Shown here one piece after another: positions 1,219 to 22,521 of a DNA stretch of 22,521 nt. Source of the stretch: Clostridia bacterium (GTDB lineage: Bacteria > Bacillota > Clostridia > Christensenellales > Aristaeellaceae); contig JAKSQG010000009.1 in the NCBI GenBank assembly GCA_024404275.1, forward strand, positions 1-22,521, given 5' to 3'. Every line of letters starts with the position of its first letter. The stretch's first letter is position 1. Position numbers and translations under genes: made by a program. Below the pieces are notes generated by a model. It worked only from the letters and a program-made list of their open reading frames with translations. It had not been told where the DNA came from and made no database searches.

Positions 1219-2682
1219 GTGCCGCTTTGTTTGCTGTGTCTGTTTTTGATGTGCCTTGCGGTCTTGCTGCTCGTGCCGCATTCAAGAAAAGCCTCCGCCG
1301 GGCAGCGCGCCCGGGATGCTTCCGCGGGGCTCAGCCGTTATGATTATGAGCTGATTTTCCGTCCGGCAGAAAGCACACTGGCCGTCACCATGACGCTTGA
1401 TTACCGCAACGACACGGGCCATGTACTGCAAAGCCTGTGCGTCCGCCTTTGGGCCAACGCCTTTTCTGACGAGGCCTCAAGCCCCGCCGCCCTGTAGGAA
1501 TGGTATGACACCTGTTACCCGGAGGGTTTTTCCGCCGGCGGCTTCACTCCGCAGGGCATCTGGTGGAACGGCGCCGCCGTTTCCTGCACTCCGGAAACGC
1601 AGGATCCCACGGTGCTGAACATTCCCATTCCGCCGCTGTCCCCCGGAGAAAACGGCACACTGCTGCTGCGCGGAGTGCTCTCCCTGCCCCTGTGCGCCCA
1701 CCGCTTCGGACAGACGGCATATGGCGTGCAGATGATGCATGCGCTGCCCACGCTGTCGTTTTATCAGGACGGTGCCTGGCGTACAGACAGCTACAGCGCC
1801 ATCGGCGATCCCTTTATCAGCGGCTGCGCCAACTACACCGTCCATCTCAAAGCACCCACGGACTGGCAGCTGATCTGCGGCGGCAGCTGCGACAAGGCCG
1901 TGAATGCCGACGGAACCATTACCTATACCGTGCAATTGCCGGCTGCCCGTGATTTCAGCTTCGTGTTAAGCCGGGGTCTGGTTGCCGCTTCCGGGCAGGC
2001 TGACGGCATACAGGTCACTGTCTGGGCGCAGGAAAAAGCCGCGGCGCAGCGTGCTGTCCGGGATGCCGTCAAGGCGCTTCGCACCTATGCGGCGTTGTGG
2101 GGCGATTATCCTTACAGTCAGCTGGTGCTGTGCGAAGGCGCATTGCCCTTCAGCGCAGATACCGGCACCGCCTTCACCCTGATCGATCATACGTATTTTG
2201 CCTCCGACCGGGCGGAATCGCTGGAGCTGGTCATCGCCCACGAAACGGCGCACCAGTGGTTCGGCGTCATGGTAGCGTCTGACAGCGTCCGCCAGCCCTG
2301 GCAGGATGAAGCCTTGGCCGAATACGCCATGCTGCGCTACATCCTGAAAAACAGCGGTGCAGCTGCCTGGCGCAATCTGGTCACGCTGCGGGCCGACGCC
2401 CCGATGCGCGAATATATCCCTTTTCCCGTCACTCCCGCCTCTCCGATCGATTATTTCGGCAGCTATGACGTCTATTCCGCCGTGGTGATCGGGCGCGGCT
2501 GCGCCTGCCTGCTGGCGCTTGAAGAAATGTCCGGCAATCCGGATCCCTTCCTGCGCTCATATGCCGATACCTTCGCCTTCGGTTATGCCACACGGGCGGA
2601 TTTTGAATCGCTTCTCTTATCTGTCACCCAAACCGACCTTGCGCCCTTGATGACAGATTATTTGGATACACAAATGAATTGA
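1219..2682 (+). CDS. M1-family zinc metallopeptidase (gluzincin) with an N-terminal membrane anchor; one reading frame containing an in-frame TAG at 1495-1497
   Basis: ORFs 1219-1497 and 1612-2682 are in the same frame. Codons 1498-1611 are open and read EWYDTCYPEGFSAGGFTPQGIWWNGAAVSCTPETQDPT. The M1 N-terminal domain pattern (YDYELIFRP...LDYRNDTGHVLQSLCVRLWANAF) lies upstream of the TAG. HETAH (HExxH) is at 2239-2253, followed by WQDEALAEY, which supplies the third zinc ligand Glu. The stop is TGA. Confidence 0.75.
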
Positions 2683-9533: not shown

Positions 9534-9646
9534 CAATTTTACCGCATTTTGCACCGCTTTGACGCCTGCAAAACAGGGTATCATTCCCAATGAAACTGTG
9601 ATAAAATAGAGAAGGCGGCCACCGCCGCGAAAGGATTGTTTTATAT

Positions 9647-10408
9647 ATGGAAGAAATGAAATATACCCGCATGAACGCGGGCATCATTGACCGCTGGTGC
9701 CGCGAGGGCTGGCGCTGGGGACAGCCCATCAAAGATGAAGACTATAAAAGCGCCCGGGAAGGGCGCTGGCGTGTGCTGCTGACCCCCAACAAATCGGTGC
9801 CCAAGGCCTGGCTGCGTGACCTGAAAGGGAAAAAAGTGCTGGGGCTTGCCTGCGGCGGCGCGCAGCAGATGCCCATTTTTGCCGCGCTTGGCGCCGAATG
9901 CACGCTGCTGGACATCAGCCCGGCACAATGCCGCTCCGACCGCGAATTTGCCGCCCGCATGGGCTATGAGATCGACATCCATGAGGCAGACATGACCGAG
10001 CCGCTGCCCTTTGAGGACGAGACCTTTGACGTGATCTTCCTGCCCGTTTCCACCTGCTATATCCGTTATCTGGACCCGTTGTTCATTGAGTGCCACCGCA
10101 TCCTGAAACCCGGCGGACAGCTGCTGGGCGGTTTTGACAGCGGCATCAACTATTGCACGGATGATGCCGAAAAGGAGCTGGTGCAGGCCCTGCCCTTTGA
10201 CCCGCTGTCTGACCCGCTTCTGATGCAGCGCTGCGTACAGCAGGATTGCGGCGTGCAGTTTTCCCATACGACGGGCGAAACGCTGGCGGCGCTGCTGCGC
10301 GCGGGCTTTTTGCTTCGCTCCATCTATGATGATACCAACGAGGATGGACATCTCAAGGAGCTGAACATTCCCGCCTTTATTGCCGTTCAGTGCCGGAAGG
10401 AGAAATAA
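9647..10408 (+). CDS. class I SAM-dependent methyltransferase
   Basis: Motif I is VLGLACGGAQQ. An acidic loop follows (LLDIS), then FDVIFLPVS and the motif-post-II LKPGGQLL. Confidence 0.8.
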   Translation: MEEMKYTRMNAGIIDRWCREGWRWGQPIKDEDYKSAREGRWRVLLTPNKSVPKAWLRDLKGKKVLGLACGGAQQMPIFAALGAECTLLDISPAQCRSDREFAARMGYEIDIHEADMTEPLPFEDETFDVIFLPVSTCYIRYLDPLFIECHRILKPGGQLLGGFDSGINYCTDDAEKELVQALPFDPLSDPLLMQRCVQQDCGVQFSHTTGETLAALLRAGFLLRSIYDDTNEDGHLKELNIPAFIAVQCRKEK

Positions 10409-10411
10409 AAT

Positions 10412-11188
10412 ATGGATTTCGGAATGCCTTTTCTGCTGGAAAACCGCTCCATTGAAGAAAGCGCCGCCCTGTGTGCCGAACTGGGATTGAAGTTTGTGGA
10501 GCTCAACATGAGCTTTCCCCTCTGCACACTGGACCGCATGAGCGCACCGATGCTGCGGGCGCTCGAAGAAAAAAACGGCATCTATTTTACTTTCCATCTG
10601 GACGAAGCGCTGACCCCCTGTGCCTTTGACAGCCGTGTGCGCGCCGCCTATGTTCAGAACGCCGCTGACGCGATCCGTCTGGCATCCGAAGCCGGCATGC
10701 CCACCGTCAATCTGCATTGGGAAAAAGGCATCGTGGTCACGCAGCCCGACCGCAAGGTATACCTGTACGACGCCTACCGGGAGGATTATCTGCGCTGCAC
10801 TGCACAGTTCCGTGCCGCCTGCGAAGAAGCCTCCGGCGGCAAAGTCAACGTCTGTGTGGAAAACACCGACGGTTATCACCCCTTCCGGCTGGAAGCCATC
10901 GAGCTGCTGCTTCAGAGTCCGGTTTTCCACCTGACGCTGGATGTCGGTCATAATGATCTGGCACACGGCGTCGATATGCCCTTCTATGACAAGCACTTTG
11001 ACGAGCTGAAGCACATGCACCTGCATGATTCCGCCGCGGATTGCCACCTGGCACTGGGCGATGGTCATCTGGACATTGCCGCCCTGATTGCCCGCGGCGA
11101 AAAAACAGGGGCACGGGCGGTGATCGAAGTCAAGACCGTCGAAGCGCTGCGCCGCAGCGTGGAACGGCTGCCGCAGTATATCAAATAA
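10412..11188 (+). CDS. sugar phosphate isomerase/epimerase (xylose isomerase-like TIM barrel, AP_endonuc_2 fold)
   Basis: It has the metal-ligand pattern VENT...LDVGH...HLHD...E typical of the family. The ORF is 258 aa. Confidence 0.7.
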   Translation: MDFGMPFLLENRSIEESAALCAELGLKFVELNMSFPLCTLDRMSAPMLRALEEKNGIYFTFHLDEALTPCAFDSRVRAAYVQNAADAIRLASEAGMPTVNLHWEKGIVVTQPDRKVYLYDAYREDYLRCTAQFRAACEEASGGKVNVCVENTDGYHPFRLEAIELLLQSPVFHLTLDVGHNDLAHGVDMPFYDKHFDELKHMHLHDSAADCHLALGDGHLDIAALIARGEKTGARAVIEVKTVEALRRSVERLPQYIK

Positions 11189-12198: not shown

Positions 12199-13653
12199 AT
12201 GCAGGACATGGTTCTGATCATCAACTTTGACGACAGCTCCAGCCGCGCCATCGCGCGCAGCCTGAGGGCGGAGCGCATTTACTGCCGCATTGTATCCGCC
12301 TCCGTCACCGAAAACGAAATTGCCGCCGCGGCCCCCATGGGACTGATTCTGTCCGGTGCTCCGGCCGGTGCAGCCGCGGAACCGGCTTTTGATCCCGCTG
12401 CCTGCCAGCTGCCTGTGCTGGCACTGGGCGCAGCCGCCGTACCGCTCGCCCGGGCACTGGGCGCCGAGGTGCAGCAGACCGCGCTGTGCGACAAGATCGG
12501 ACACGTGCGTTTTCTTTCCTCTCCCCTGACCCGGAATCTGGAGGATTGCGACCGCCTGCTATCTGCTGTGCGGCGTCTGCGCCTGCCATCCGGGGTGGAG
12601 CAGATTGCCGAATGTGAGGGCGAGGTCATCGGCTTTGCCGACACGACCCGGCAGCTGTATGGCATGCAGTATACCATGGAATCCAACGATACGGACGGCA
12701 TGTCGCTGCTGATGGGCTTTGTGACCGGCGTATGCGGCTGCAGCCGCTGGTGGGATTACGAAGCCTTTGTGCAGGGTGCGGTGGAAGATATCCGTTCCAA
12801 AGTCGGCGACGGCCGTGCCCTTTGCTCCATGACAGGCGGTCTGGACAGCGGTGTCAGCGCGCTGCTGGCACACAAGGCGTTGGGCGACCGTCTGCAGTGC
12901 GTATTTATCGATACCGGCCTGATGCGCGACCGCGAAGGCGAGCGCTTCCTGACCTTCTACCGCGATCAGATGGGCCTTAACATCTGCCATGTGCATGCCG
13001 AAGAGCGCTTTTTGCAGGCGCTCAAGGGTGTGCGTGACCCGCAGGAGAAAAAGGCCATCATCGGCGATGTACTGCAGCGTGTTCTGGATGAAACGCTGGC
13101 CAACCTGGGGCAGTTCAGCTGCGTCATCCGCGGCACCATCTGTACCGAGGTCATGAACGGCACCGGTCAGAACAAGCGTCCCGTCATCTATCCCGATCTG
13201 CCCCGTATTGAGCCCCTGCGCGAGCTGTTCAAAAGCGAAGTACGCGAAGCAGGCTCCTACATGGGCATGCCCGCCGAAGTGGTGGTCAAGCAGACCTTCC
13301 CGGGCAGCGGCCTGGCGCTGCGTGTGCTGGGCGAAGTCACCCCCGCCCGTCTGCAGACGCTGCGCGCCGCCGACGCCATCTTTACCGATGAGCTGAACAC
13401 CGCAGGACAGCTCAAGCGCGTACGGCAGCACTTCTGCCTGCTGATGGAACTGCCGGGCAGCTCCACCCGTTCGGTCATTGTGCTCAAGGCCGTCAACATC
13501 GTGGAAGGCGCGCAGCAGTACTATCCTGCCCGACTGCCCGCCGACCTGCTCGAGCGCGTGACCACACGCATCCTGCACGACCGTCCCGAGGTGGAGCATG
13601 TGCTCTATGACCTGACCGCTTCCGAAACGACCGGCCGCGTGGAATGGCAGTAA
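12199..13653 (+). CDS. GMP synthase (GuaA)-like protein: degenerate glutaminase domain plus ATP-pyrophosphatase and a GuaA C-terminal domain
   Basis: The PP-loop is SMTGGLDSGVSALL (canonical SGGVDSSV). The GuaA-type C-terminus is VLYDLTASETTGRVEWQ. The N-terminal GATase-like fold is present, but the catalytic Cys and His positions read LALGAAAV and MQYTMES. Confidence 0.7.
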   Translation: MQDMVLIINFDDSSSRAIARSLRAERIYCRIVSASVTENEIAAAAPMGLILSGAPAGAAAEPAFDPAACQLPVLALGAAAVPLARALGAEVQQTALCDKIGHVRFLSSPLTRNLEDCDRLLSAVRRLRLPSGVEQIAECEGEVIGFADTTRQLYGMQYTMESNDTDGMSLLMGFVTGVCGCSRWWDYEAFVQGAVEDIRSKVGDGRALCSMTGGLDSGVSALLAHKALGDRLQCVFIDTGLMRDREGERFLTFYRDQMGLNICHVHAEERFLQALKGVRDPQEKKAIIGDVLQRVLDETLANLGQFSCVIRGTICTEVMNGTGQNKRPVIYPDLPRIEPLRELFKSEVREAGSYMGMPAEVVVKQTFPGSGLALRVLGEVTPARLQTLRAADAIFTDELNTAGQLKRVRQHFCLLMELPGSSTRSVIVLKAVNIVEGAQQYYPARLPADLLERVTTRILHDRPEVEHVLYDLTASETTGRVEWQ

Positions 13654-13686
13654 GCCGTTTTCCGCCGCCACAGAGGAACTGATTTC

Positions 13687-14499
13687 ATGCAGCTTTCACA
13701 TCCCATCGGGCCCTATCAGGGTCTGGATCCCCGCGATTGCTTTATCGTTTCCAATGACCAGCAGGTGCCGATGGGCACCGGCACGGTCATCAGCTTCATG
13801 CAGGGCGAAATGTATCCCGACGCCCCGCTGCGCATTTTTATCTCCATCGAGGCGCAGCCCGCTGCCCGCAGCCTGCTGCTCGGCGCACTGCTGGCACGTG
13901 CCGAGGAAAAGAGAGCCGAAGCCCCCGGTCTGCGCGCACGGCTGTATACCATTGTATCGCCGGAAGACGCCGACCTGCTCTCCTTCTACGAAAAAGCCGG
14001 TTTCAAGGCTGATGACACGCAGGACGTGTGGCATTTTGAACTGCCCGCCTGGTCCTCCCGTGTACCGGTCAGCTGCAATCTGCTGCCGGTCACGCTGCGC
14101 AGTCAGGAGGATGCCATGGCCTTCATGCAGCGCCTCAACACCTACCGCATTGAGATGCTGGACATGAACACCATGATCCGCTGCATGCAGATGGAACATT
14201 TCTGCGCCCTCGGCTTTTACCGCGGCGTGAATCCCGTCAGTGAGGTGCTTCTGGCCGGTCAGGGCGACTCTGTTTCCCTGGTAGGTCTGTATGTACGCGC
14301 CGATTACCGCCGTCAGGGCTTTGCCAAGGCCATCATCGGTGCCGCGGCCGAGCAGCTGCGCTCCCACGGGGTGGAACACATCTCCGCCAACATTTTCAGC
14401 AGCATTCCGGCGCAGACCGCTTTGATGCGTGCTGCCGCCGCCCGCAAGATCCGCACCGTCGCTGTCATGCCCGGTGCCGACCTGGAGCCCGATCAATAA
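13687..14499 (+). CDS. GNAT-fold acetyltransferase, apparently with two lobes
   Basis: The C-terminal lobe has VGLYVRADYRRQGFAKAIIGAAAEQL (motif A). The N-terminal lobe ends LLSFYEKAGF. Confidence 0.6.
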   Translation: MQLSHPIGPYQGLDPRDCFIVSNDQQVPMGTGTVISFMQGEMYPDAPLRIFISIEAQPAARSLLLGALLARAEEKRAEAPGLRARLYTIVSPEDADLLSFYEKAGFKADDTQDVWHFELPAWSSRVPVSCNLLPVTLRSQEDAMAFMQRLNTYRIEMLDMNTMIRCMQMEHFCALGFYRGVNPVSEVLLAGQGDSVSLVGLYVRADYRRQGFAKAIIGAAAEQLRSHGVEHISANIFSSIPAQTALMRAAAARKIRTVAVMPGADLEPDQ

Positions 14500-15316: not shown

Positions 15317-15328
15317 GGGGGTGTGAAA

Positions 15329-17644
15329 TTACTTCACGAAGGTGGCAGCGGGAGTTTCAGCCAGCACGATGTCGCTGACCTTATCCAGCTGGACGGTGTA
15401 GGTGGCGCCGATCTCGATGGCATCCAGCAGAGCCTGAGCTTCTTCGAGGGAGCTCACGCGAGCGGTACGAACGATTTCGGTCCAGGCAGTGTCGGTGGGA
15501 CGGTTGGCAATTTCAACGGGGCCGCTGGTCCACTGCACAGCGTAGTTATCAGCGCCGTAGAAGTTGGTGTCATAGTCGACCTTGCCGGCGTAGTCATCCT
15601 TCACATGCCCGACGATCTGCACGAAGTAGCTGTCGGGATCATGCACGAAGGCATCCTTGGGAATAACGAAGCCGTTGGAGAGTTCGAAGCCATAGATGTT
15701 GAACATGCCGGCGAACTCTTCGGAGGGGTTCTGCCACATATCGAAGCCGTGCAGGATGCAGGCATCCAGAACTTCCAGCTCGTAGGTGCCTTCAGCACGC
15801 TTGTAGGGACCGTAGGCTTCGATGGTCTGCAGGGTCTTGGAGGAAGCGGAGGAGCGGAAGCCGCCATGCTCGAAGAACAGGTCGCCGACAGCATCCTTCT
15901 CGTTTACCCAATCCTGGAAGAAGCTCTCATAGGTGTTGTAGGAGATGCGCTTCTCGCAGAAGTTCTGGATAGCATCCAGACCTTCGGTCAGCACGGACAG
16001 GAAGGGGATGTTCTTCTCTTCGCAGGCCTTGTCGATATCGTACCCGGGATCCTGGTTGGAGTGCTGGGGTACGTTGCACACGTAGTCAGCGGAAGCGGCA
16101 GCCATGGGGGCGGCAACGCTCTGGATGTACTTCAGGCCGTCAACATAGGCCAGACGGGTCCAACCGGACTTCAGGTTGTTCTGAGCGCCGTAGCCGCCCA
16201 TGTAGCAGAAGGCAGCGGTCTTGCCGGCTTCCAGCACCTTGTCGTTTTCGGTAGCGGTGAGACGGAACACGAAGGAAGCGGTATCAGCGGTGTGGCCGGT
16301 GGTCAGGAAGGGATACACTTCAACGCCGCCGCCGAAGTCATTCTGCCACTCATACCAGTTGTCCCAGGCGGTCAGGGTGTAGGCAACAGACTTGTCGGTC
16401 AGAACCGGGCCGATTTCCGGATAGCCCAGATAGTCGAAGCCGCCCTTGTTGTTGCTGGAGGTCTGCACAGCGGCATACTGCTCGCCGTAGGCAATGTTGC
16501 CCTGACCAACCTGATAGTGGTTGATCATGGTCAGGTTCTCGACCAGAGCCTGATAATGGTCGCCGTGGCCATGGGTCAGCAGGATCTTATCCACTTCACG
16601 GGGATCGAAGCCCAAGGCTTCCAGGTTCAGCCAGTACTGGTAAGAGGCGCAGGTGTTGCCCTGGTCCAGCAGGGTCATGGTGCCATCATCGCCCAGGAAC
16701 AGATAGATGTTAGTGTAGGAATCGCCGATGGAGTAGAAGCGGTCAGCCATCACTTCGAAGGGGATGCAGGAACCGTCGAAGCCGTAGGAGTGCTTTTCCT
16801 TGGCAGCGGACACTTCAGGCATCCAGCCCACGCCATCATAGGTGGTGTTGTCGGGGGTGACCAGCTTGCTGGCAGCCAGCACTTCGGGGTTCTTGTAGAC
16901 ATACAGCTGAGCGACCTTGGCGGTCTCGTAGGTGGTGTAGTCGCCGTCGAACACAGCGATCACAACGTACTTCTCGGGCTGGTAGTAGATCTCGCCGTCT
17001 TCGCCCACGGGGCAGACAACGATCTCTTCCAGGGTGGTGGGTTCGGCAGCCCAGCTGCCGGTCACCAGGGTGCCTTCGACGGTGGTGGTGTTATCCACGG
17101 CGAAGATCTGGCAGTCATCGGCCAGGGTATAGGTCTCTTCGAAGATGTTGGTGCAGTGGTTGCCATCGCCCACGGTGGTGGTGCGGGCATCGGCATCGGT
17201 GGCCAGCACCCAGGCCTGAGCCATCATGGCGCCGGGCTTGCCGCCCTCGCCGGTCAGCTCAACGCCGTACTTGGCGGAGTCCATGAAACCGATGCTGGGG
17301 CCGAAGCCGCCGGCCATCTGCATCAGGCGCTCGATGTTGATGATGTTGCCTTCGGCATCCATCACGAGCTCGATGCTGTTGTTGGCCTGGCACAGGGCTA
17401 CCACGGCTTCAGCGCGGGTAACGCCGGTCAGGGCATTGGTCTGGGTCAGGGGAACGGTGGTGACGGTCTTCTTCTCGAAGGTACCGGCTTCGACGATCTC
17501 GACGGTCACGCAGCCGTTTTCATCCACCGTGGCGGGGGTGACGACCCAGCCCCAGGTGCTGGAGGCGGGCACGGATTCCGCGACAGCCAGGGCGGCGACG
17601 CAGATCAGCAGCACGCACAGGAGGATAGAAGCGATCTTCTTCAT
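15329..17644 (-). CDS. secreted multidomain MBL-fold metallo-hydrolase (771 aa)
   Basis: It has a signal peptide (MKKIASILLCVLLICVAALAVAES). The central motif LLTHGHGDH fits HxHxDH, with a later TTGHTADT. About 330 aa N-terminal and about 250 aa C-terminal have no motif I recognise. The stop is TAA and a GAGAGG RBS lies upstream. Confidence 0.8.
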   Translation of the reverse strand: MKKIASILLCVLLICVAALAVAESVPASSTWGWVVTPATVDENGCVTVEIVEAGTFEKKTVTTVPLTQTNALTGVTRAEAVVALCQANNSIELVMDAEGNIINIERLMQMAGGFGPSIGFMDSAKYGVELTGEGGKPGAMMAQAWVLATDADARTTTVGDGNHCTNIFEETYTLADDCQIFAVDNTTTVEGTLVTGSWAAEPTTLEEIVVCPVGEDGEIYYQPEKYVVIAVFDGDYTTYETAKVAQLYVYKNPEVLAASKLVTPDNTTYDGVGWMPEVSAAKEKHSYGFDGSCIPFEVMADRFYSIGDSYTNIYLFLGDDGTMTLLDQGNTCASYQYWLNLEALGFDPREVDKILLTHGHGDHYQALVENLTMINHYQVGQGNIAYGEQYAAVQTSSNNKGGFDYLGYPEIGPVLTDKSVAYTLTAWDNWYEWQNDFGGGVEVYPFLTTGHTADTASFVFRLTATENDKVLEAGKTAAFCYMGGYGAQNNLKSGWTRLAYVDGLKYIQSVAAPMAAASADYVCNVPQHSNQDPGYDIDKACEEKNIPFLSVLTEGLDAIQNFCEKRISYNTYESFFQDWVNEKDAVGDLFFEHGGFRSSASSKTLQTIEAYGPYKRAEGTYELEVLDACILHGFDMWQNPSEEFAGMFNIYGFELSNGFVIPKDAFVHDPDSYFVQIVGHVKDDYAGKVDYDTNFYGADNYAVQWTSGPVEIANRPTDTAWTEIVRTARVSSLEEAQALLDAIEIGATYTVQLDKVSDIVLAETPAATFVK

Positions 17645-17770
17645 GGTGTATTCCTCTCTCTCAAATATTTCCGGCTCATTCTTCCTTTTCAGGCATCAGC
17701 ATCGGCCGTTCATGCTGAACTTGTTTTTCGTTCCCGGTTCGATCCCGAAAACGTCACTGCAATACTAACA

Positions 17771-17785
17771 GCGAAAAGCGTGCCA
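17771..17785 (-). promoter_or_regulatory. sigma-54 (-24/-12) promoter driving the MBL-fold gene
   Basis: The minus strand reads TGGCACGCTTTTCGC, compared with the consensus TGGCACG-N4-TTGC. The GG-N10-GC spacing is exact and there is one mismatch in the -12 element. It lies about 125 nt upstream of the ATG at 17644. Confidence 0.7.
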
Positions 17786-17961
17786 AAATATGGATACCGG
17801 CAAAAAATTTTTCCCAACCCTATTTTTCAGCATCCATCTTTCATGACCTGCATGCAATTGAAAACGAATGAAATGAAATTGATTCGTGCTGCAACCTTCG
17901 GACCTCCTGCCGTTTTCGGATATACATTCCCCAATTCCATTCTGTTGTTCCAATGTAATGT

Positions 17962-17985
17962 CTGTCAAAAGCTCCTTCCTGACAG
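17962..17985. promoter_or_regulatory. inverted repeat CTGTCA-N12-TGACAG, a candidate activator (UAS) site
   Basis: The arms are a perfect 6 bp. The repeat lies about 180-200 bp upstream of the minus-strand sigma-54 promoter. Confidence 0.3.
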
Positions 17986-17996
17986 GTATTTGCGTT

Positions 17997-18017
17997 CTTT
18001 TCAACATGTTTCCATTT
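17997..18017. promoter_or_regulatory. candidate UAS motif copy B (TTTTCAACATGTTTCCATTT)
   Basis: It nearly matches 20359-20376 upstream of the second sigma-54 promoter. The core AACATGTT is palindromic. Confidence 0.35.
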
Positions 18018-18110
18018 CGTACCGTATGAAACCATCTGAAACCTATTGGGACATTTTGAACATTTTGAACACCATATGTCTATTATCAACAGCTTTGATT
18101 GAAACAAAAT

Positions 18111-18151
18111 AAAAGGAAAGCAAAACCATGACCGGTTTTTGCCTTCCTTTT
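18111..18151 (-). terminator. probable terminator after the sigma-54 activator gene
   Basis: A long imperfect hairpin pairs 18111-18127 with 18134-18151. On the minus strand it is followed by ATTTTGTTTC. Confidence 0.5.
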
Positions 18152-18238: not shown

Positions 18239-20158
18239 TCATTCAATTCCATACTCCCGGATTTTTCGCCACAGGGTGGTTTTGCTCAAGCCCAGCATAT
18301 CCGCCGCCTCTTTCTTGGTCTTGGCGATCAGAAGTGTATCCATGATCTTCTGGCGTTCCTTATCGCGCAGGGAGATGGTCGGAACCGCAGCGACCTGCTC
18401 TTCCTGAGGAGCCTCCTTCTGCGGGAGTACATTTTTCACATCGCCGAGGGTAATAAAGGTAGTGGAGCACAGCACCGCCAGCTGCTCGGAAACATTGCGC
18501 AGCTCACGCAGATTGCCCGGCCAGGGATAGCGCCCGATCAGGGTGGCGGCGTCCGGAGACAGACGGATCTATGTTTTACCGAATTTGGCCGCATAATAAT
18601 TGAGATAATGCTGCATGATGAGTGCTGCATCGCCGTCCCTGCGGCGCAGCGGAGGCAGATTGATGGAAAGCACCTTCAGACGATAATACAGATCCTCGCG
18701 AAATTTGTTTTCCGCGATCAGCTGCGTCAGATCCTTGTTGGTGGCGCAGATGATGCGCACATCCACATCGATCACCTTATCGCTGCCGATACGGCGCACT
18801 TCGCGTTCCTGAATGATGCGCAGCAGACGGGTCTGCATCTCCAGCGGGATCTCACTGATCTCATCAAGGAAAATGGTGCCGGTGTGCGCCGACTCAAAAA
18901 AGCCTGCTTTGCCGTTTTTGTTGGCGCCTGTGAAGGCGCCGCCCACATAACCGAACAGCTCGCTTTCAAACAGCGAGGGAGAAATGGCCGCACAGTTGAC
19001 CGCCACAAACGGTCTGTCGGCACGCTCGCTTTCGTTGTGGATGGACTGCGCTACCAGCTCCTTGCCGGTACCTGTCTCGCCAAAGAGCAGGATATTGGAA
19101 TCCACCTTCGCGTACTGACGAGCCTGATGGATCATATCCTGCAAAACAGTACTTTCACCCAGAATATCCCTGAAATGATACTTGGCCTTGTTGGATTTTT
19201 CGTTGCGGACCGTGGGCATATTTCCGCTGACCACATTGCTTTCACGCACCTTGCGCATGGTGATAACGGTGCCCAGCTGACGGTCGGCATCAGTCATGCT
19301 GCTGCCGCTCATGCGGATGTATTCCCCGCCGATGCGCACGACTTCATCATGAAAGGGCTTGTTATAGCTGAGAAGATTCAGCAGATTGCCTTCCGGCAGC
19401 ACTTTTTCGGTCGGACGACCGATCATTTCACTGCTCTTGCGGCCCAGCAGCATTTCCGCCACCGGATTGAAGGCACGCACAATACCGTTCTGGTCGACGG
19501 CGATGACACCGTCGCTGACGTGATTCAGCACCGCACGGTTTGTTGCGGATGATTCGCGCTCCGCCAAAAAGACCTGTGCGCAGCGTTTGGCCTCCGTAAT
19601 GGCCAGAAAGATCGATTCCGCGGAGGAGATCAGTAAGCCGCTGGGCACGCCATACTCCTTGGCAAATTCCATGGTATGATAGCCGCCGATGATCATTTTT
19701 GCGCCGTTCTGAACGGCTTCCCGTACGCCCTCACGCAGGCTGTCCCGGACAATATCCGGTGTGGTAAACGCCATGACCGGAAAGGGATATTCCGCCCCGA
19801 GATAATCCACGCAGCAGGTCATGTTGGCGGTACCGACCACGCCGATGGCCATATCCCCGTAGCGTTCGACCGCCTGACGGATGGAGATGCGCAGATCGTT
19901 TGCGGTGATCGGAATCTCAACAATAGGCGTCATCGGGTTCTGATTGCGGATCGTAGAGGCTGTGCCGCCGCGGCTGACGACCACATCCGCCTTGAAATGC
20001 TTGGCCAGAATAATGGTCGGCGAGACCTCGCATTCCACGGTATAACGATAATCCAGCCCGTACAGATTGGGTCCGAAGACCTCATTATGCATGGACCAAG
20101 CCTGTTTGACAAAGGGGATCATCGTAGGGGACGGCAGCGCAAAGTCAATGTGAACCAT
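18239..20158 (-). CDS. sigma-54-dependent transcriptional activator (PrpR_N - PAS - AAA+ - Fis-type HTH); one frame containing an in-frame TAG at 18569-18571
   Basis: ORFs 18569-20158 and 18239-18475 share one frame, and the codons between them are open. The read-through sequence is ...YYAAKFGKT[TAG]IRLSPDAATLIGRYPWPGNLRELRNVSEQLAVLC...KKEAADMLGLSKTTLWRKIREYGIE. It has Walker A GETGTGKE, the GAFTGA loop, Walker B FLDEI and the R-finger region. The WPGN(V/L)REL and HTH segments lie after the TAG. The stop is TGA. Confidence 0.85.
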
Positions 20159-20358
20159 GTTTTTTCCTCCAGAACCGACGCGGCATTCCTTTTCGCCTGA
20201 AAAGGGTGTTTCCTCATTCTCTATGCAAATCCCGTGCCATCTTCATTCCATTATGTTTCAAAAATATTCAAGTTTTGGAAGTCTTCAGCCGGCACGCCGC
20301 ATCCAATGCCGTGGCAGGATGATTATACCGTTTTTTTGATTCAAATAATAGCATTTTA

Positions 20359-20376
20359 TTTCAACTTGTTTCATTT
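20359..20376. promoter_or_regulatory. candidate UAS motif copy A (TTTCAACTTGTTTCATTT)
   Basis: It lies about 90 bp upstream of the plus-strand sigma-54 promoter and matches 17997-18017 with one substitution and one indel. Confidence 0.35.
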
Positions 20377-20462
20377 AAGCAAAGAGGGTGTGCAGGAGAA
20401 AAAGACATTGATTCTTCTTCCTATTAAAAAAAATGGTCAGCAGCATCCTTTCGTCAACTGTT

Positions 20463-20478
20463 TGGCACATTTTTTGCA
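20463..20478 (+). promoter_or_regulatory. sigma-54 (-24/-12) promoter driving the membrane-protein/MoxR operon
   Basis: TGGCACATTTTTTGCA matches TGGCAC-N5-TTGCA exactly, with GG-N10-GC spacing. It lies about 107 nt upstream of the GTG at 20585 and is divergent from the activator gene. Confidence 0.75.
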
Positions 20479-20523
20479 GATAATCTCAGTGGAGTATATT
20501 GTTTCCCGAAAATTGAAGATCCT

Positions 20524-20545
20524 GCATCCCGTTTTTGCGGGATGC
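20524..20545 (+). other. 8-bp GC-rich hairpin in the 5' UTR of the sigma-54-dependent operon
   Basis: GCATCCCG-TTTTTG-CGGGATGC. No U-tract follows, so it is not a terminator. Confidence 0.3.
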
Positions 20546-20584
20546 TGTCCTGCCCCATCCTCTGCATAGAAGGAGGCCGATCGG

Positions 20585-21991
20585 GTGATAAAAGAACTGA
20601 TTCCCTTTCAAAAGCGTCTGAACCGGCAGGCATTGCTGCGTAGTACAGCGCTTGCCGCCGCCATCGGAGCTGGCACTGCCGCCTGCGTGCTGCTCGTTTA
20701 TCGGCTACTGACCGATACCCGCAGTCCCATCCTGCCGCTCATCGCAGGTACAGCCGCGGCGCTGATCGCATTCTTGATTTTTTATCTGTTTGTGTTCCGT
20801 GCGAATGAAAAAAAGACCGCCGCGTATCTTGACCGTCAGGGATTGCAATAGCGTGTGCTGACCATGGTCACGAATCAATCTCTGAATGACCCCATCAGTC
20901 AGCTGCAGCGGCAGGATGCCCTGCGCCATATCGCGAAGCTCTCCCCCCGCGACATCAAAGTGAAAGCACCCGTGAAAAGTCTGATTGCACTGCTGTGCAT
21001 CGTTGTGCTGATCACGCCGCTTGCGATCATTCCCGGACCGTATCTGACTTTGAACAACGGTGAGGATGCCGCACTGCGGCGCTCGCAGGAAGCGCAGCTG
21101 GTCGATCAGCTGCTGGAAGACCTGCGCCGCCGCATTGAAGAATCCTCCCTCAGTGAGGAAAGGCGGCAGGAGCTGCTCGCCTGGCTGGACAGTCTGTCCG
21201 GTGATGCGCAGATCGATATGAAGCAGCTGGCGGATATCATCGCGCAGGCGCAGCAGATGGAAGAACACATCGCCAACGAGGAATCCTACGGCGCGGTGAT
21301 GGCATAGATGCTGGCGCAGCCGCACTTTGCAGGTTTGGCCAAAGCCATCCTCAACGCCGACATCGACGAGATGAACACCTACTTTGATGAGCTGGAAGCC
21401 AGTCTTGTTGTGCTGGAGCAGGAGCCGCTGTGCGCCGAGCTGATGGAGATCCGCAATGAAGCGATGGCCATCAACGCCCGCGCGTAGGAAGACGAAGGTG
21501 ACACCTCCGTCACCGGCGCCTTCAATACGCTGGCCAGCGGTTTCTATCTGGCATCCATCGGCGGCTTTTCCCACGAGGATACCGTTCAGCTGGTACATGA
21601 GGACCTGTTCCAGTGCCGCCTGACCATTCTGGGTATGCTGCAGGCGATGAGCTCATCGGGTAACGGCAGTGTGGACCGTGAACGTGCACAGACCGATGTA
21701 TCCGTCAAGCAGGAGACACACGAAGAAAACGGCACTGCCGCCGGCAAGACGGAACAGGACGAAAACGGCATCCTCAGCGGCGGCATTGACGGCATTGCCT
21801 CGGAAAGTCTGGGCGCAGCCATCCGTTTCAATCAGCCCGATGAGATGATGTGGGATCCCGACCGCAAGGAGACCCTTCCCTACCGTGAGGTATACGGCAA
21901 GTATTACCTGCAATTGCTCGAAGGCATGGAGAACGGTCTGTGGGACGAAAACACCTATGACGAGATCAACCGTTATTTTAATGGATTGTAA
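20585..21991 (+). CDS. membrane-anchored coiled-coil protein of unknown function; one frame with three in-frame TAGs (20849, 21305, 21485)
   Basis: ORFs 20585-20851, 20855-21307, the 59-codon stretch 21308-21484 and ORF 21635-21991 are all in the same frame and separated only by TAG. An AGGAGG RBS lies 8 nt before the GTG at 20585. There are three predicted TM helices followed by charged helical repeats. The final stop is TAA. It sits immediately upstream of the MoxR ATPase gene. Confidence 0.6.
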
Positions 21992-22017: not shown

Positions 22018-22521
22018 ATGAACATGACCAACGAAGCGGATATCCTGCGTTTCGGCGAATATTGCCGCAGCGCTATCGAAGAGATCGGCAAGGACATCGT
22101 AGGCCAGAAGGATGTTGTGGAAGGCGTTGTGACCGCCATGATCGCCGGCGGCAACGTGCTGCTGGAGGGTGTTCCCGGTACCGGCAAGACCCGTCTGATC
22201 CGCTCTGTCGGTCAGACCTTCGGCCTCAGCTTTTCCCGTATCCAGTTTACCCCCGATATGATGCCCGCTGATGTGACCGGCGTGCAGGTGCTGGAAAAGA
22301 AGGCCGACGGTACCGCCGCCTTCCGCTTCCAGCCCGGTCCCGTATTTGCCAACATCGTGCTGGCGGATGAGATCAACCGCGCAACGCCCAAGACGCAGTC
22401 GGCTTTGCTGCAGGCCATGGAAGAGCACCGCTTCAGCGTAGGCGGCACCGACCACATTCTGGAGGAGCCCTTCTTTGTTCTGGCGACCCAGAACCCCATT
22501 GAGCAGGAAGGTACCTATCCC
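22018..22521 (+). CDS. MoxR-family AAA+ ATPase, 3' end beyond the window
   Basis: My translation reads [63 protein letters not shown]...[14 protein letters not shown]...[30 protein letters not shown]...[17 protein letters not shown]. It has Walker A, Walker B and the MoxR-specific motifs. Given the GGAGG spacing, the ATG at 22024 may be the true start. Confidence 0.9.

Follow-up and report, generated by a model that had tools for sequence, protein, structure and literature searches.

In bacteria, the known departures from the standard genetic code are all reassignments of UGA, according to a survey of over 250,000 genomes (PMC8629427). TAG is otherwise a stop codon in bacteria, and genome-wide recoding of TAG has not been observed there (10.1101/2024.09.30.615893). 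Literature from 2026 likewise names no bacterial changes other than those of UGA, and for archaea the TAG-to-Pyl change (10.64898/2026.05.24.727570). Our own literature search, which was not exhaustive, returned no report of a bacterial code in which UAG specifies Glu. To our knowledge, sense use of UAG in bacteria is limited to pyrrolysine in a handful of enzymes. The bacterial UGA codes (tables 4 and 25) are found in Mycoplasmatales, some endosymbionts, Gracilibacteria/Absconditabacteria, and Eggerthellaceae.

Here we analyzed a stretch of 22,521 nucleotides, referred to as the window, from a Clostridia bacterium of the Aristaeellaceae (GCA_024404275.1, contig JAKSQG010000009.1, positions 1 to 22,521, forward strand). 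The window is a segment of a bacterial chromosome with 57% GC and carries lgt, NUDIX, VanW, DegV, L21-Prp-L27, and a GMP-synthase-like gene. A long reading frame upstream of a MoxR gene contains three TAG codons. Our data suggest, with a probability of roughly 0.78, that these TAGs are sense codons, i.e., that the lineage no longer stops at UAG but inserts an amino acid there, most probably glutamate. With somewhat less assurance, we think it probable that at least two species of gut Clostridia use a new bacterial code at an early stage, in which UAG specifies glutamate and UAA and UGA are the only stops.

The proposed code shares several properties with the bacterial UGA codes, including a lineage-wide change from stop to sense, loss of terminator use, in-frame codons at conserved positions, and the splitting of affected genes by standard-code gene callers. 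The two differ in the codon and the residue (UAG and a putative Glu here, UGA and Trp or Gly there) and in the genome, which here has 57% GC and is neither small nor AT-rich. Archaeal Code 34 is alike in that TAG is a sense codon genome-wide in ordinary genes of a prokaryote, with densities that differ among genomes and suggest different times since the switch. However, Code 34 is archaeal, pyl-dependent, and adds a 21st amino acid, whereas the Glu and Asp partner codons found here point to a canonical residue. TAG-recoded gut phages (crAss-like, Lak) also contain in-frame TAGs, are known from gut-associated sequences, and presumably share the use of a tRNA with a CUA anticodon. In contrast, these phages insert Gln via a suppressor tRNA, while the TAGs described here lie on a chromosome with L21, L27, lgt, and housekeeping enzymes and appear to specify Glu; moreover, TAG stops are avoided here by all genes, not by late phage genes only. 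Peritrich ciliates (table 30) and Blastocrithidia (table 31) do read UAG as glutamate, there via a tRNA-Glu with a mutated anticodon, but their codes are nuclear and eukaryotic and reassign UAA too, whereas TAA ends 10 of the 22 genes in the window. Finally, E. coli C321.deltaA and amber suppression resemble the proposed end state, in which TAG terminators are absent, RF1 is dispensable, and UAG is free, although the case here would be natural, evolved, and common to at least two species.

Sequences compared

A scan of the GTDB species genomes recovered one sister MAG and nothing else, the window's own species lying outside that collection. The sister species is represented by Clostridia MAG GCA_045599485.1, whose contig JAZRWA010000086.1 was read along 79 kb. 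A scan of JGI metagenomes for the 468-residue protein encoded by the frame gave no match. Further material came from a 21.6-kb Logan contig of the window's species at another locus (L012), whose run also contained a portion of the window at 96.5% identity; a gene-catalogue contig with 98.4% nucleotide identity to the window (L003); an ENA contig from the window's species (L006); and a Logan contig from a separate run with 91.8% nucleotide identity, which represents a third lineage (L007). The tallies reported below rest on approximately 125 kb from the window species and the sister species, at most about 5% of each genome, so TAG terminators may occur elsewhere in these genomes. Many of the 112 tallied genes are orthologous between the two species.

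A long reading frame interrupted by TAG alone

A sequence-only reading of the window had singled out the membrane protein gene (Table 1) as four open segments in a single frame, separated by TAG alone. Translation of 20585-21991 bears this out: stops appear at codons 89, 241, and 301 of 469, all of them are TAG, and the frame stays open past the third to a terminal TAA at 21989-91. Across its 468 codons the frame contains no TGA and no TAA, while frames in the window otherwise hold 124-215 TAA and TGA codons per approximately 7500 codons. The TAG-only interruption of this frame is not due to chance.

The surroundings of the TAGs were also as that reading had described them. A single CGT codon lies between the first TAG and the next start, a GTG at 20855, and the second TAG is followed at once by open frame, beginning with an ATG at 21308. 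Past the third TAG, the next ATG, GTG, or TTG is 49 codons away and the next listed start is at 21635. A strong ribosome-binding site (AGGAGG) precedes the first segment only, and the internal starts have none. A further open frame (20201-20569) continues into the reading frame of the gene through a fourth TAG (20567). It was rejected as intergenic on account of its GC3 of 0.42 and the two sigma-54 promoters inside it.

Table 1. Features of the window discussed in the text
Feature	Positions	Strand	Remarks
M1-family metallopeptidase gene	1219..2682	+	In-frame TAG at 1495-1497; same TAG in L006
Sigma-54 activator gene (PrpR_N-PAS-AAA+-HTH)	18239..20158	-	639 codons; in-frame TAG at 18569-18571; GAG (Glu) in the sister species
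Candidate sigma-54 promoter, second exact consensus	20224..20239	-	Faces the divergent activator gene
Candidate sigma-54 promoter TGGCAC-N5-TTGCA, exact	20463..20478	+	Faces the membrane protein gene
Shine-Dalgarno sequence AGGAGG	20571..20576	+	8 nt before the GTG start; orthologue start at the same position
Uncharacterised membrane protein gene, first of the MoxR operon	20585..21991	+	468 codons plus TAA; GTG start; three TAGs
In-frame TAG, codon 89	20849..20851	+	GAA (Glu) in the sister species
In-frame TAG, codon 241	21305..21307	+	GAG (Glu) in the sister species; TAG also in L003 and L007
In-frame TAG, codon 301	21485..21487	+	GAA (Glu) in the sister species; GTG (Val) in L007
MoxR AAA+ ATPase gene, 5' part	22018..22521	+	Cut by the window end; AAA_3, E = 8e-53

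Evidence that the four segments form one gene

The sequence-only reading had proposed a single fused product of approximately 470 residues, and such a protein exists in the sister species. Its orthologue (P0001) has 468 amino acids, is collinear with the frame without indels, and is encoded directly upstream of MoxR-DUF58-BatA-VWA, i.e., one protein of about 470 residues does occupy the place before MoxR in a relative. P0001 shares 84% identity over 100% of the query and is the sole close homologue in a collection of 5.8 billion proteins. The window gene and the sister gene align codon for codon with zero indels. A profile search (exhaustive HMMER) extended this to 657 representative homologues, mostly of 470-510 amino acids, that match end to end. 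The first TAG had been considered as a possible gene boundary; this was rejected, with Glu or Asp occupying the column of codon 89 in 142 of 151 homologues.

We found that dN/dS relative to the sister species is low in each of the four segments, at 0.17, 0.11, 0.07, and 0.09, respectively (Nei-Gojobori, dS about 0.9). The window and L007 both have TAG at codon 241, and the segments downstream of it have dN/dS of 0.13 and 0.10 between them. Since both lineages carry this TAG, the low ratios suggest that translation went on after the TAG arose. Judged by its alignment and substitution pattern, the 469-codon frame is one gene with all four segments under purifying selection.

The same TAGs are present in independent public assemblies (L003, L006, L007, and GCA_024500545.1), which rules out an artefact of the window assembly. 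The L003 contig terminates exactly at the codon-241 TAG. We also considered recoding signals local to each TAG. A PYLIS- or SECIS-like structure downstream was rejected because folding is not in excess: the 120 nt past the individual TAGs of the window are no more stably folded than shuffled sequences, with z of -0.6 to +0.5. The base after the window TAGs varies (C, A, G, A, and G). RNA editing of UAG to GAG was rejected, as bacterial editing is not known to make this conversion.

TAG as terminator and as internal codon

We found that TAG terminates none of the 112 genes tallied across the window, L012, and the sister species. The 22 genes of the window end in TGA (12) or TAA (10), the 19 genes of L012 in TGA (12) or TAA (7), and the 71 genes of the sister species in TGA (42) or TAA (29). 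All 112 genes are free of in-frame TAA and TGA. In relatives with the standard code, TAG is expected as the stop of approximately 10-25% of genes. If TAG is assumed to end 10-20% of genes, a share taken from general knowledge, the finding of 0 TAG stops in 71 genes has P < 1e-3. One ORF that does end in TAG (77-598) was discarded; it overlaps, in antisense orientation, the hydrolase gene at the window's left edge.

TAG occurs instead within genes, with 18 in-frame TAGs in 13 genes over the approximately 125 kb of the two species. Five of these fall in 3 of the 22 window genes, three in 3 of the 19 genes of L012, and ten in 7 of the 71 genes along 79 kb of the sister species. TAG is nevertheless rare, at 0.04-0.08% of codons and about 1% of Glu codons.

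The other two TAG-bearing genes of the window are listed in Table 1. In the sigma-54 activator, the TAG sits between the AAA+ lid and the HTH domain, and the HTH past the TAG is intact and conserved (dN/dS 0.107). An independent NCBI gene catalogue lists a 529-aa TAG-truncated activator, which is without the DNA-binding domain. The orthologue of the metallopeptidase (P0002) is one protein of 487 amino acids with Asp at the TAG position. Outside the window, TAGs interrupt genes for GntR, phosphodiesterase, AP-endonuclease-like, MBL hydrolase, Iso_dh, amylase, FGGY kinase, and XRE-like proteins. In PDB alignments, the TAG positions of the activator and the amylase correspond to variable residues. 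On sequence evidence, our data indicate that the reading of TAG is a property of the organism and not of the membrane protein gene alone.

A GAG/TAG polymorphism is also present within the window's species, between L002 (5775-5777) and the window (about 14485-14487), in a GNAT acetyltransferase gene. It lies 4 codons ahead of the TAA of that gene, and the three following codons and the TAA are conserved.

Candidate identity of the amino acid

We compared TAG codons with their partner codons in a sister genome (n=14) and found 10 Glu, 3 Asp, and 1 Gln. The TAGs of the window species are paired with GAA, GAG, GAA, GAG, an Asp codon, GAA, GAA, and GAG, to which the L002 polymorphism adds another GAG, and those of the sister species are paired with CAG, GAA, GAG, GAC, and GAC. 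Glu accounts for 6.5-7% of codons. Going by composition, at least 9 Glu among 13 partners would be seen with a probability of 2e-8; a null model in which TAGs derive randomly from codons one step away gives 8e-5.

Both TAGs in strongly conserved columns (codon 89 and the peptidase) fall in family-wide acidic columns. Codon 89 belongs to LD..GL.E-R..TM, the family's best-conserved motif, and its column contains E in 118, D in 24, and other residues in 9 of 151 homologues (94% acidic, Gln 2). The peptidase column contains E in 61, D in 49, and other residues in 10 of 120 homologues (92% acidic, Gln 1). The column of codon 301 is variable across the family. The partner-codon bias and the acidic columns together make Glu the best inference, and the UAG residue is most likely glutamate.

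We reasoned that the same comparisons bear on other residues, namely pyrrolysine, aspartate, or glutamine inserted by a tRNA-Gln(CUA) suppressor of the phage type, any of which we consider unlikely. The residue was read from alignments, the partners include one CAG (Gln) and three Asp, a low-GC XRE-like gene with 3 TAGs in 246 codons recalls TAG-recoded phages, and archaea do have a genome-wide TAG-to-Pyl code (10.1101/2024.09.30.615893). However, acidic residues are encoded by 13 of the 14 partners and Gln by only 1, and Gln is likewise scarce in the two family-wide acidic columns (1-2 of 120-151). The single Gln partner is in the MBL hydrolase, at a freely varying position of that family (V, L, P, K, A, Q), and phage-type Gln recoding is further disfavoured by the window being a bacterial chromosome and not a phage context. 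For a new or bulky residue, pyrrolysine among them, partners would be expected to spread by mutation across Gln, Lys, Trp, Tyr, Leu, and Ser, which is the null model with a probability of 8e-5. For aspartate, GAC is two steps from TAG, whereas Glu is a single G-to-T step away. Given the 4 of 14 partners that are not Glu, decoding of UAG as Asp or mixed decoding is possible.

Proposed decoding and alternatives to full reassignment

We propose that UAG would be read as glutamate by a tRNA with anticodon CUA that is charged with Glu, and that release factor 1 would have been lost or disabled. Once TAG stops had vanished, GAG-to-TAG changes (one G-to-T step) would be neutral and would build up in the lineages separately. 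The two species share none of the 13 between-species TAG sites, which fits a reassignment older than the species split, with GAG-to-TAG changes drifting in later. ARAGORN predicted no tRNA gene at any of the 12 loci (approximately 125 kb), and prfA, pylT, pylS, pylBCD, and methylamine methyltransferase genes do not occur within these approximately 125 kb, which cover at most about 5% of each genome. When JGI metagenomes were scanned for the anticodon arm of tRNA-Glu with CUA, the one match was due to chance and did not belong to a tRNA.

The rarity of TAG and the lack of shared sites (0 of 13) would also fit a young or weakly tolerated state, in which RF1 is kept and competes with a suppressor tRNA, so that truncated and full-length products are both made by a code in transition. 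In addition, the within-species TAG precedes a normal stop by only 4 codons, so that terminating there would do no harm. We nonetheless regard such ambiguous decoding as quite improbable. TAG terminators are found in 0 of 112 genes, and TAGs occur early in long genes, with functionally essential domains such as the catalytic domain of the peptidase and the HTH of the activator located downstream and under strong purifying selection. Furthermore, with three TAGs in series, as in the membrane protein gene, full-length product would be scarce unless the TAGs were suppressed efficiently. Tolerated low-efficiency suppression instead of full reassignment is possible.

Decay of the membrane protein gene by nonsense mutation, with the first 88 residues or nothing made, is highly improbable. 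Three premature stops are the classical signature of a pseudogene, and GAG-to-TAG is a single-step nonsense mutation. However, no affected gene contains a frameshift, indel, TGA, or TAA, and dN/dS is about 0.1 past every TAG, including between lineages that share a TAG. The two species have TAGs inside 13 genes and at the end of none, and a Glu partner bias is not expected from random nonsense mutations. Equally improbable are four separate small genes with their own starts, or a sequencing or assembly artefact: a GTG (20855) and an ATG (21308) do lie close behind the first two TAGs and the fragments have been entered as genes in public catalogues, but 49 start-less codons follow the third TAG, the internal starts are without RBS, a single polypeptide is encoded in relatives and throughout the family, the first TAG would break the most conserved motif, and the TAGs recur in at least 4 independent assemblies that differ by other SNPs.

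Implications of UAG as a proposed glutamate codon

If UAG is read as glutamate in these species, they would be the first cellular prokaryotes in which the amber codon has passed to a canonical amino acid, and their code would be a new entry among the genetic-code tables. It would mean that amber reassignment is possible without genome reduction or extreme base composition, in a bacterium that is free-living or gut-dwelling. These species would also offer a natural test, at an early stage, of the codon-capture and ambiguous-intermediate models. We consider the stage early because TAG amounts to about 1% of Glu codons, its sites differ between the sister species, and one site is polymorphic. Since TAG is rare here, coding density barely falls, and detectors based on coding density would therefore miss the code. 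TAG-recoded phages might find a permissive host in these bacteria, and a natural Glu-accepting amber suppressor pair would be of interest to genetic-code engineers.

The encoded protein and the MoxR operon

Three membrane helices and a long helical region had been predicted from the translated frame, in agreement with an AlphaFold2 model of the orthologue, which is all-helical with a mean pLDDT of 77.6. The model predicts two N-terminal membrane helices and a third at about 130-148, followed by long helices, a putatively disordered acidic stretch at 360-418, and what appears to be a small C-terminal hairpin-plus-helices unit that carries invariant Tyr residues. P0001 has no significant match in Pfam or NCBIfam, and a PDB fold search with the orthologue model found no resembling structure. 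The nearest named family is DUF4175, with weak matches in 2 of 30 family members (best E = 3.7e-4) that do not reach the Pfam gathering score for membership. We take DUF4175 to be a membrane protein of MoxR/Bat-type operons.

In the sister species, MoxR is followed by DUF58, BatA, and VWA genes. The sigma-54 promoter consensus TGGCAC-N5-TTGCA has just two exact matches in the window, and both copies lie within one 430-bp intergenic region, the plus-strand copy being 107 nt upstream of the membrane protein gene. Given its position and the exact promoter upstream, we assign the membrane protein gene as the first gene of a putative sigma-54-dependent MoxR operon. The divergent sigma-54 activator probably controls the MoxR-DUF58-BatA-VWA operon. 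The pairing of the two candidate promoters suggests that the MoxR operon is sigma-54-dependent and autoregulated.

Gene calls and other open frames

Standard annotation pipelines split or truncate genes of these genomes, and the fragments are already present in public catalogues. The metallopeptidase is started by gene callers at GTG 1612, with loss of the signal/membrane helix and the N-terminal domain. In the sister species, a secreted MBL-fold hydrolase of 771 amino acids (L001 4737-7052, minus strand) is annotated as two proteins of 380 and 379 amino acids, split at the TAG; its counterpart in the window (15329-17644, minus strand) has CAG at that codon.

The XRE/HTH-like gene mentioned above lies on the sister contig (L010 10001-10741, about 40.3-39.6 kb) and has 41% GC. 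Its three TAGs in 246 codons correspond to a density about 30 times that of the surrounding genes, and a 78-aa fragment of the gene is also found in the catalogue GCA_024500545.1. This gene may derive from a TAG-recoded mobile element or phage.

Long open frames also run antisense to real genes of the window, at 15323-18112 (plus strand) and at 9641-11068, 12559-13671, and 20705-21598 (minus strand), and reach up to 929 codons. None of these antisense frames has a Pfam match, and they are side effects of high GC3 in the opposite genes.
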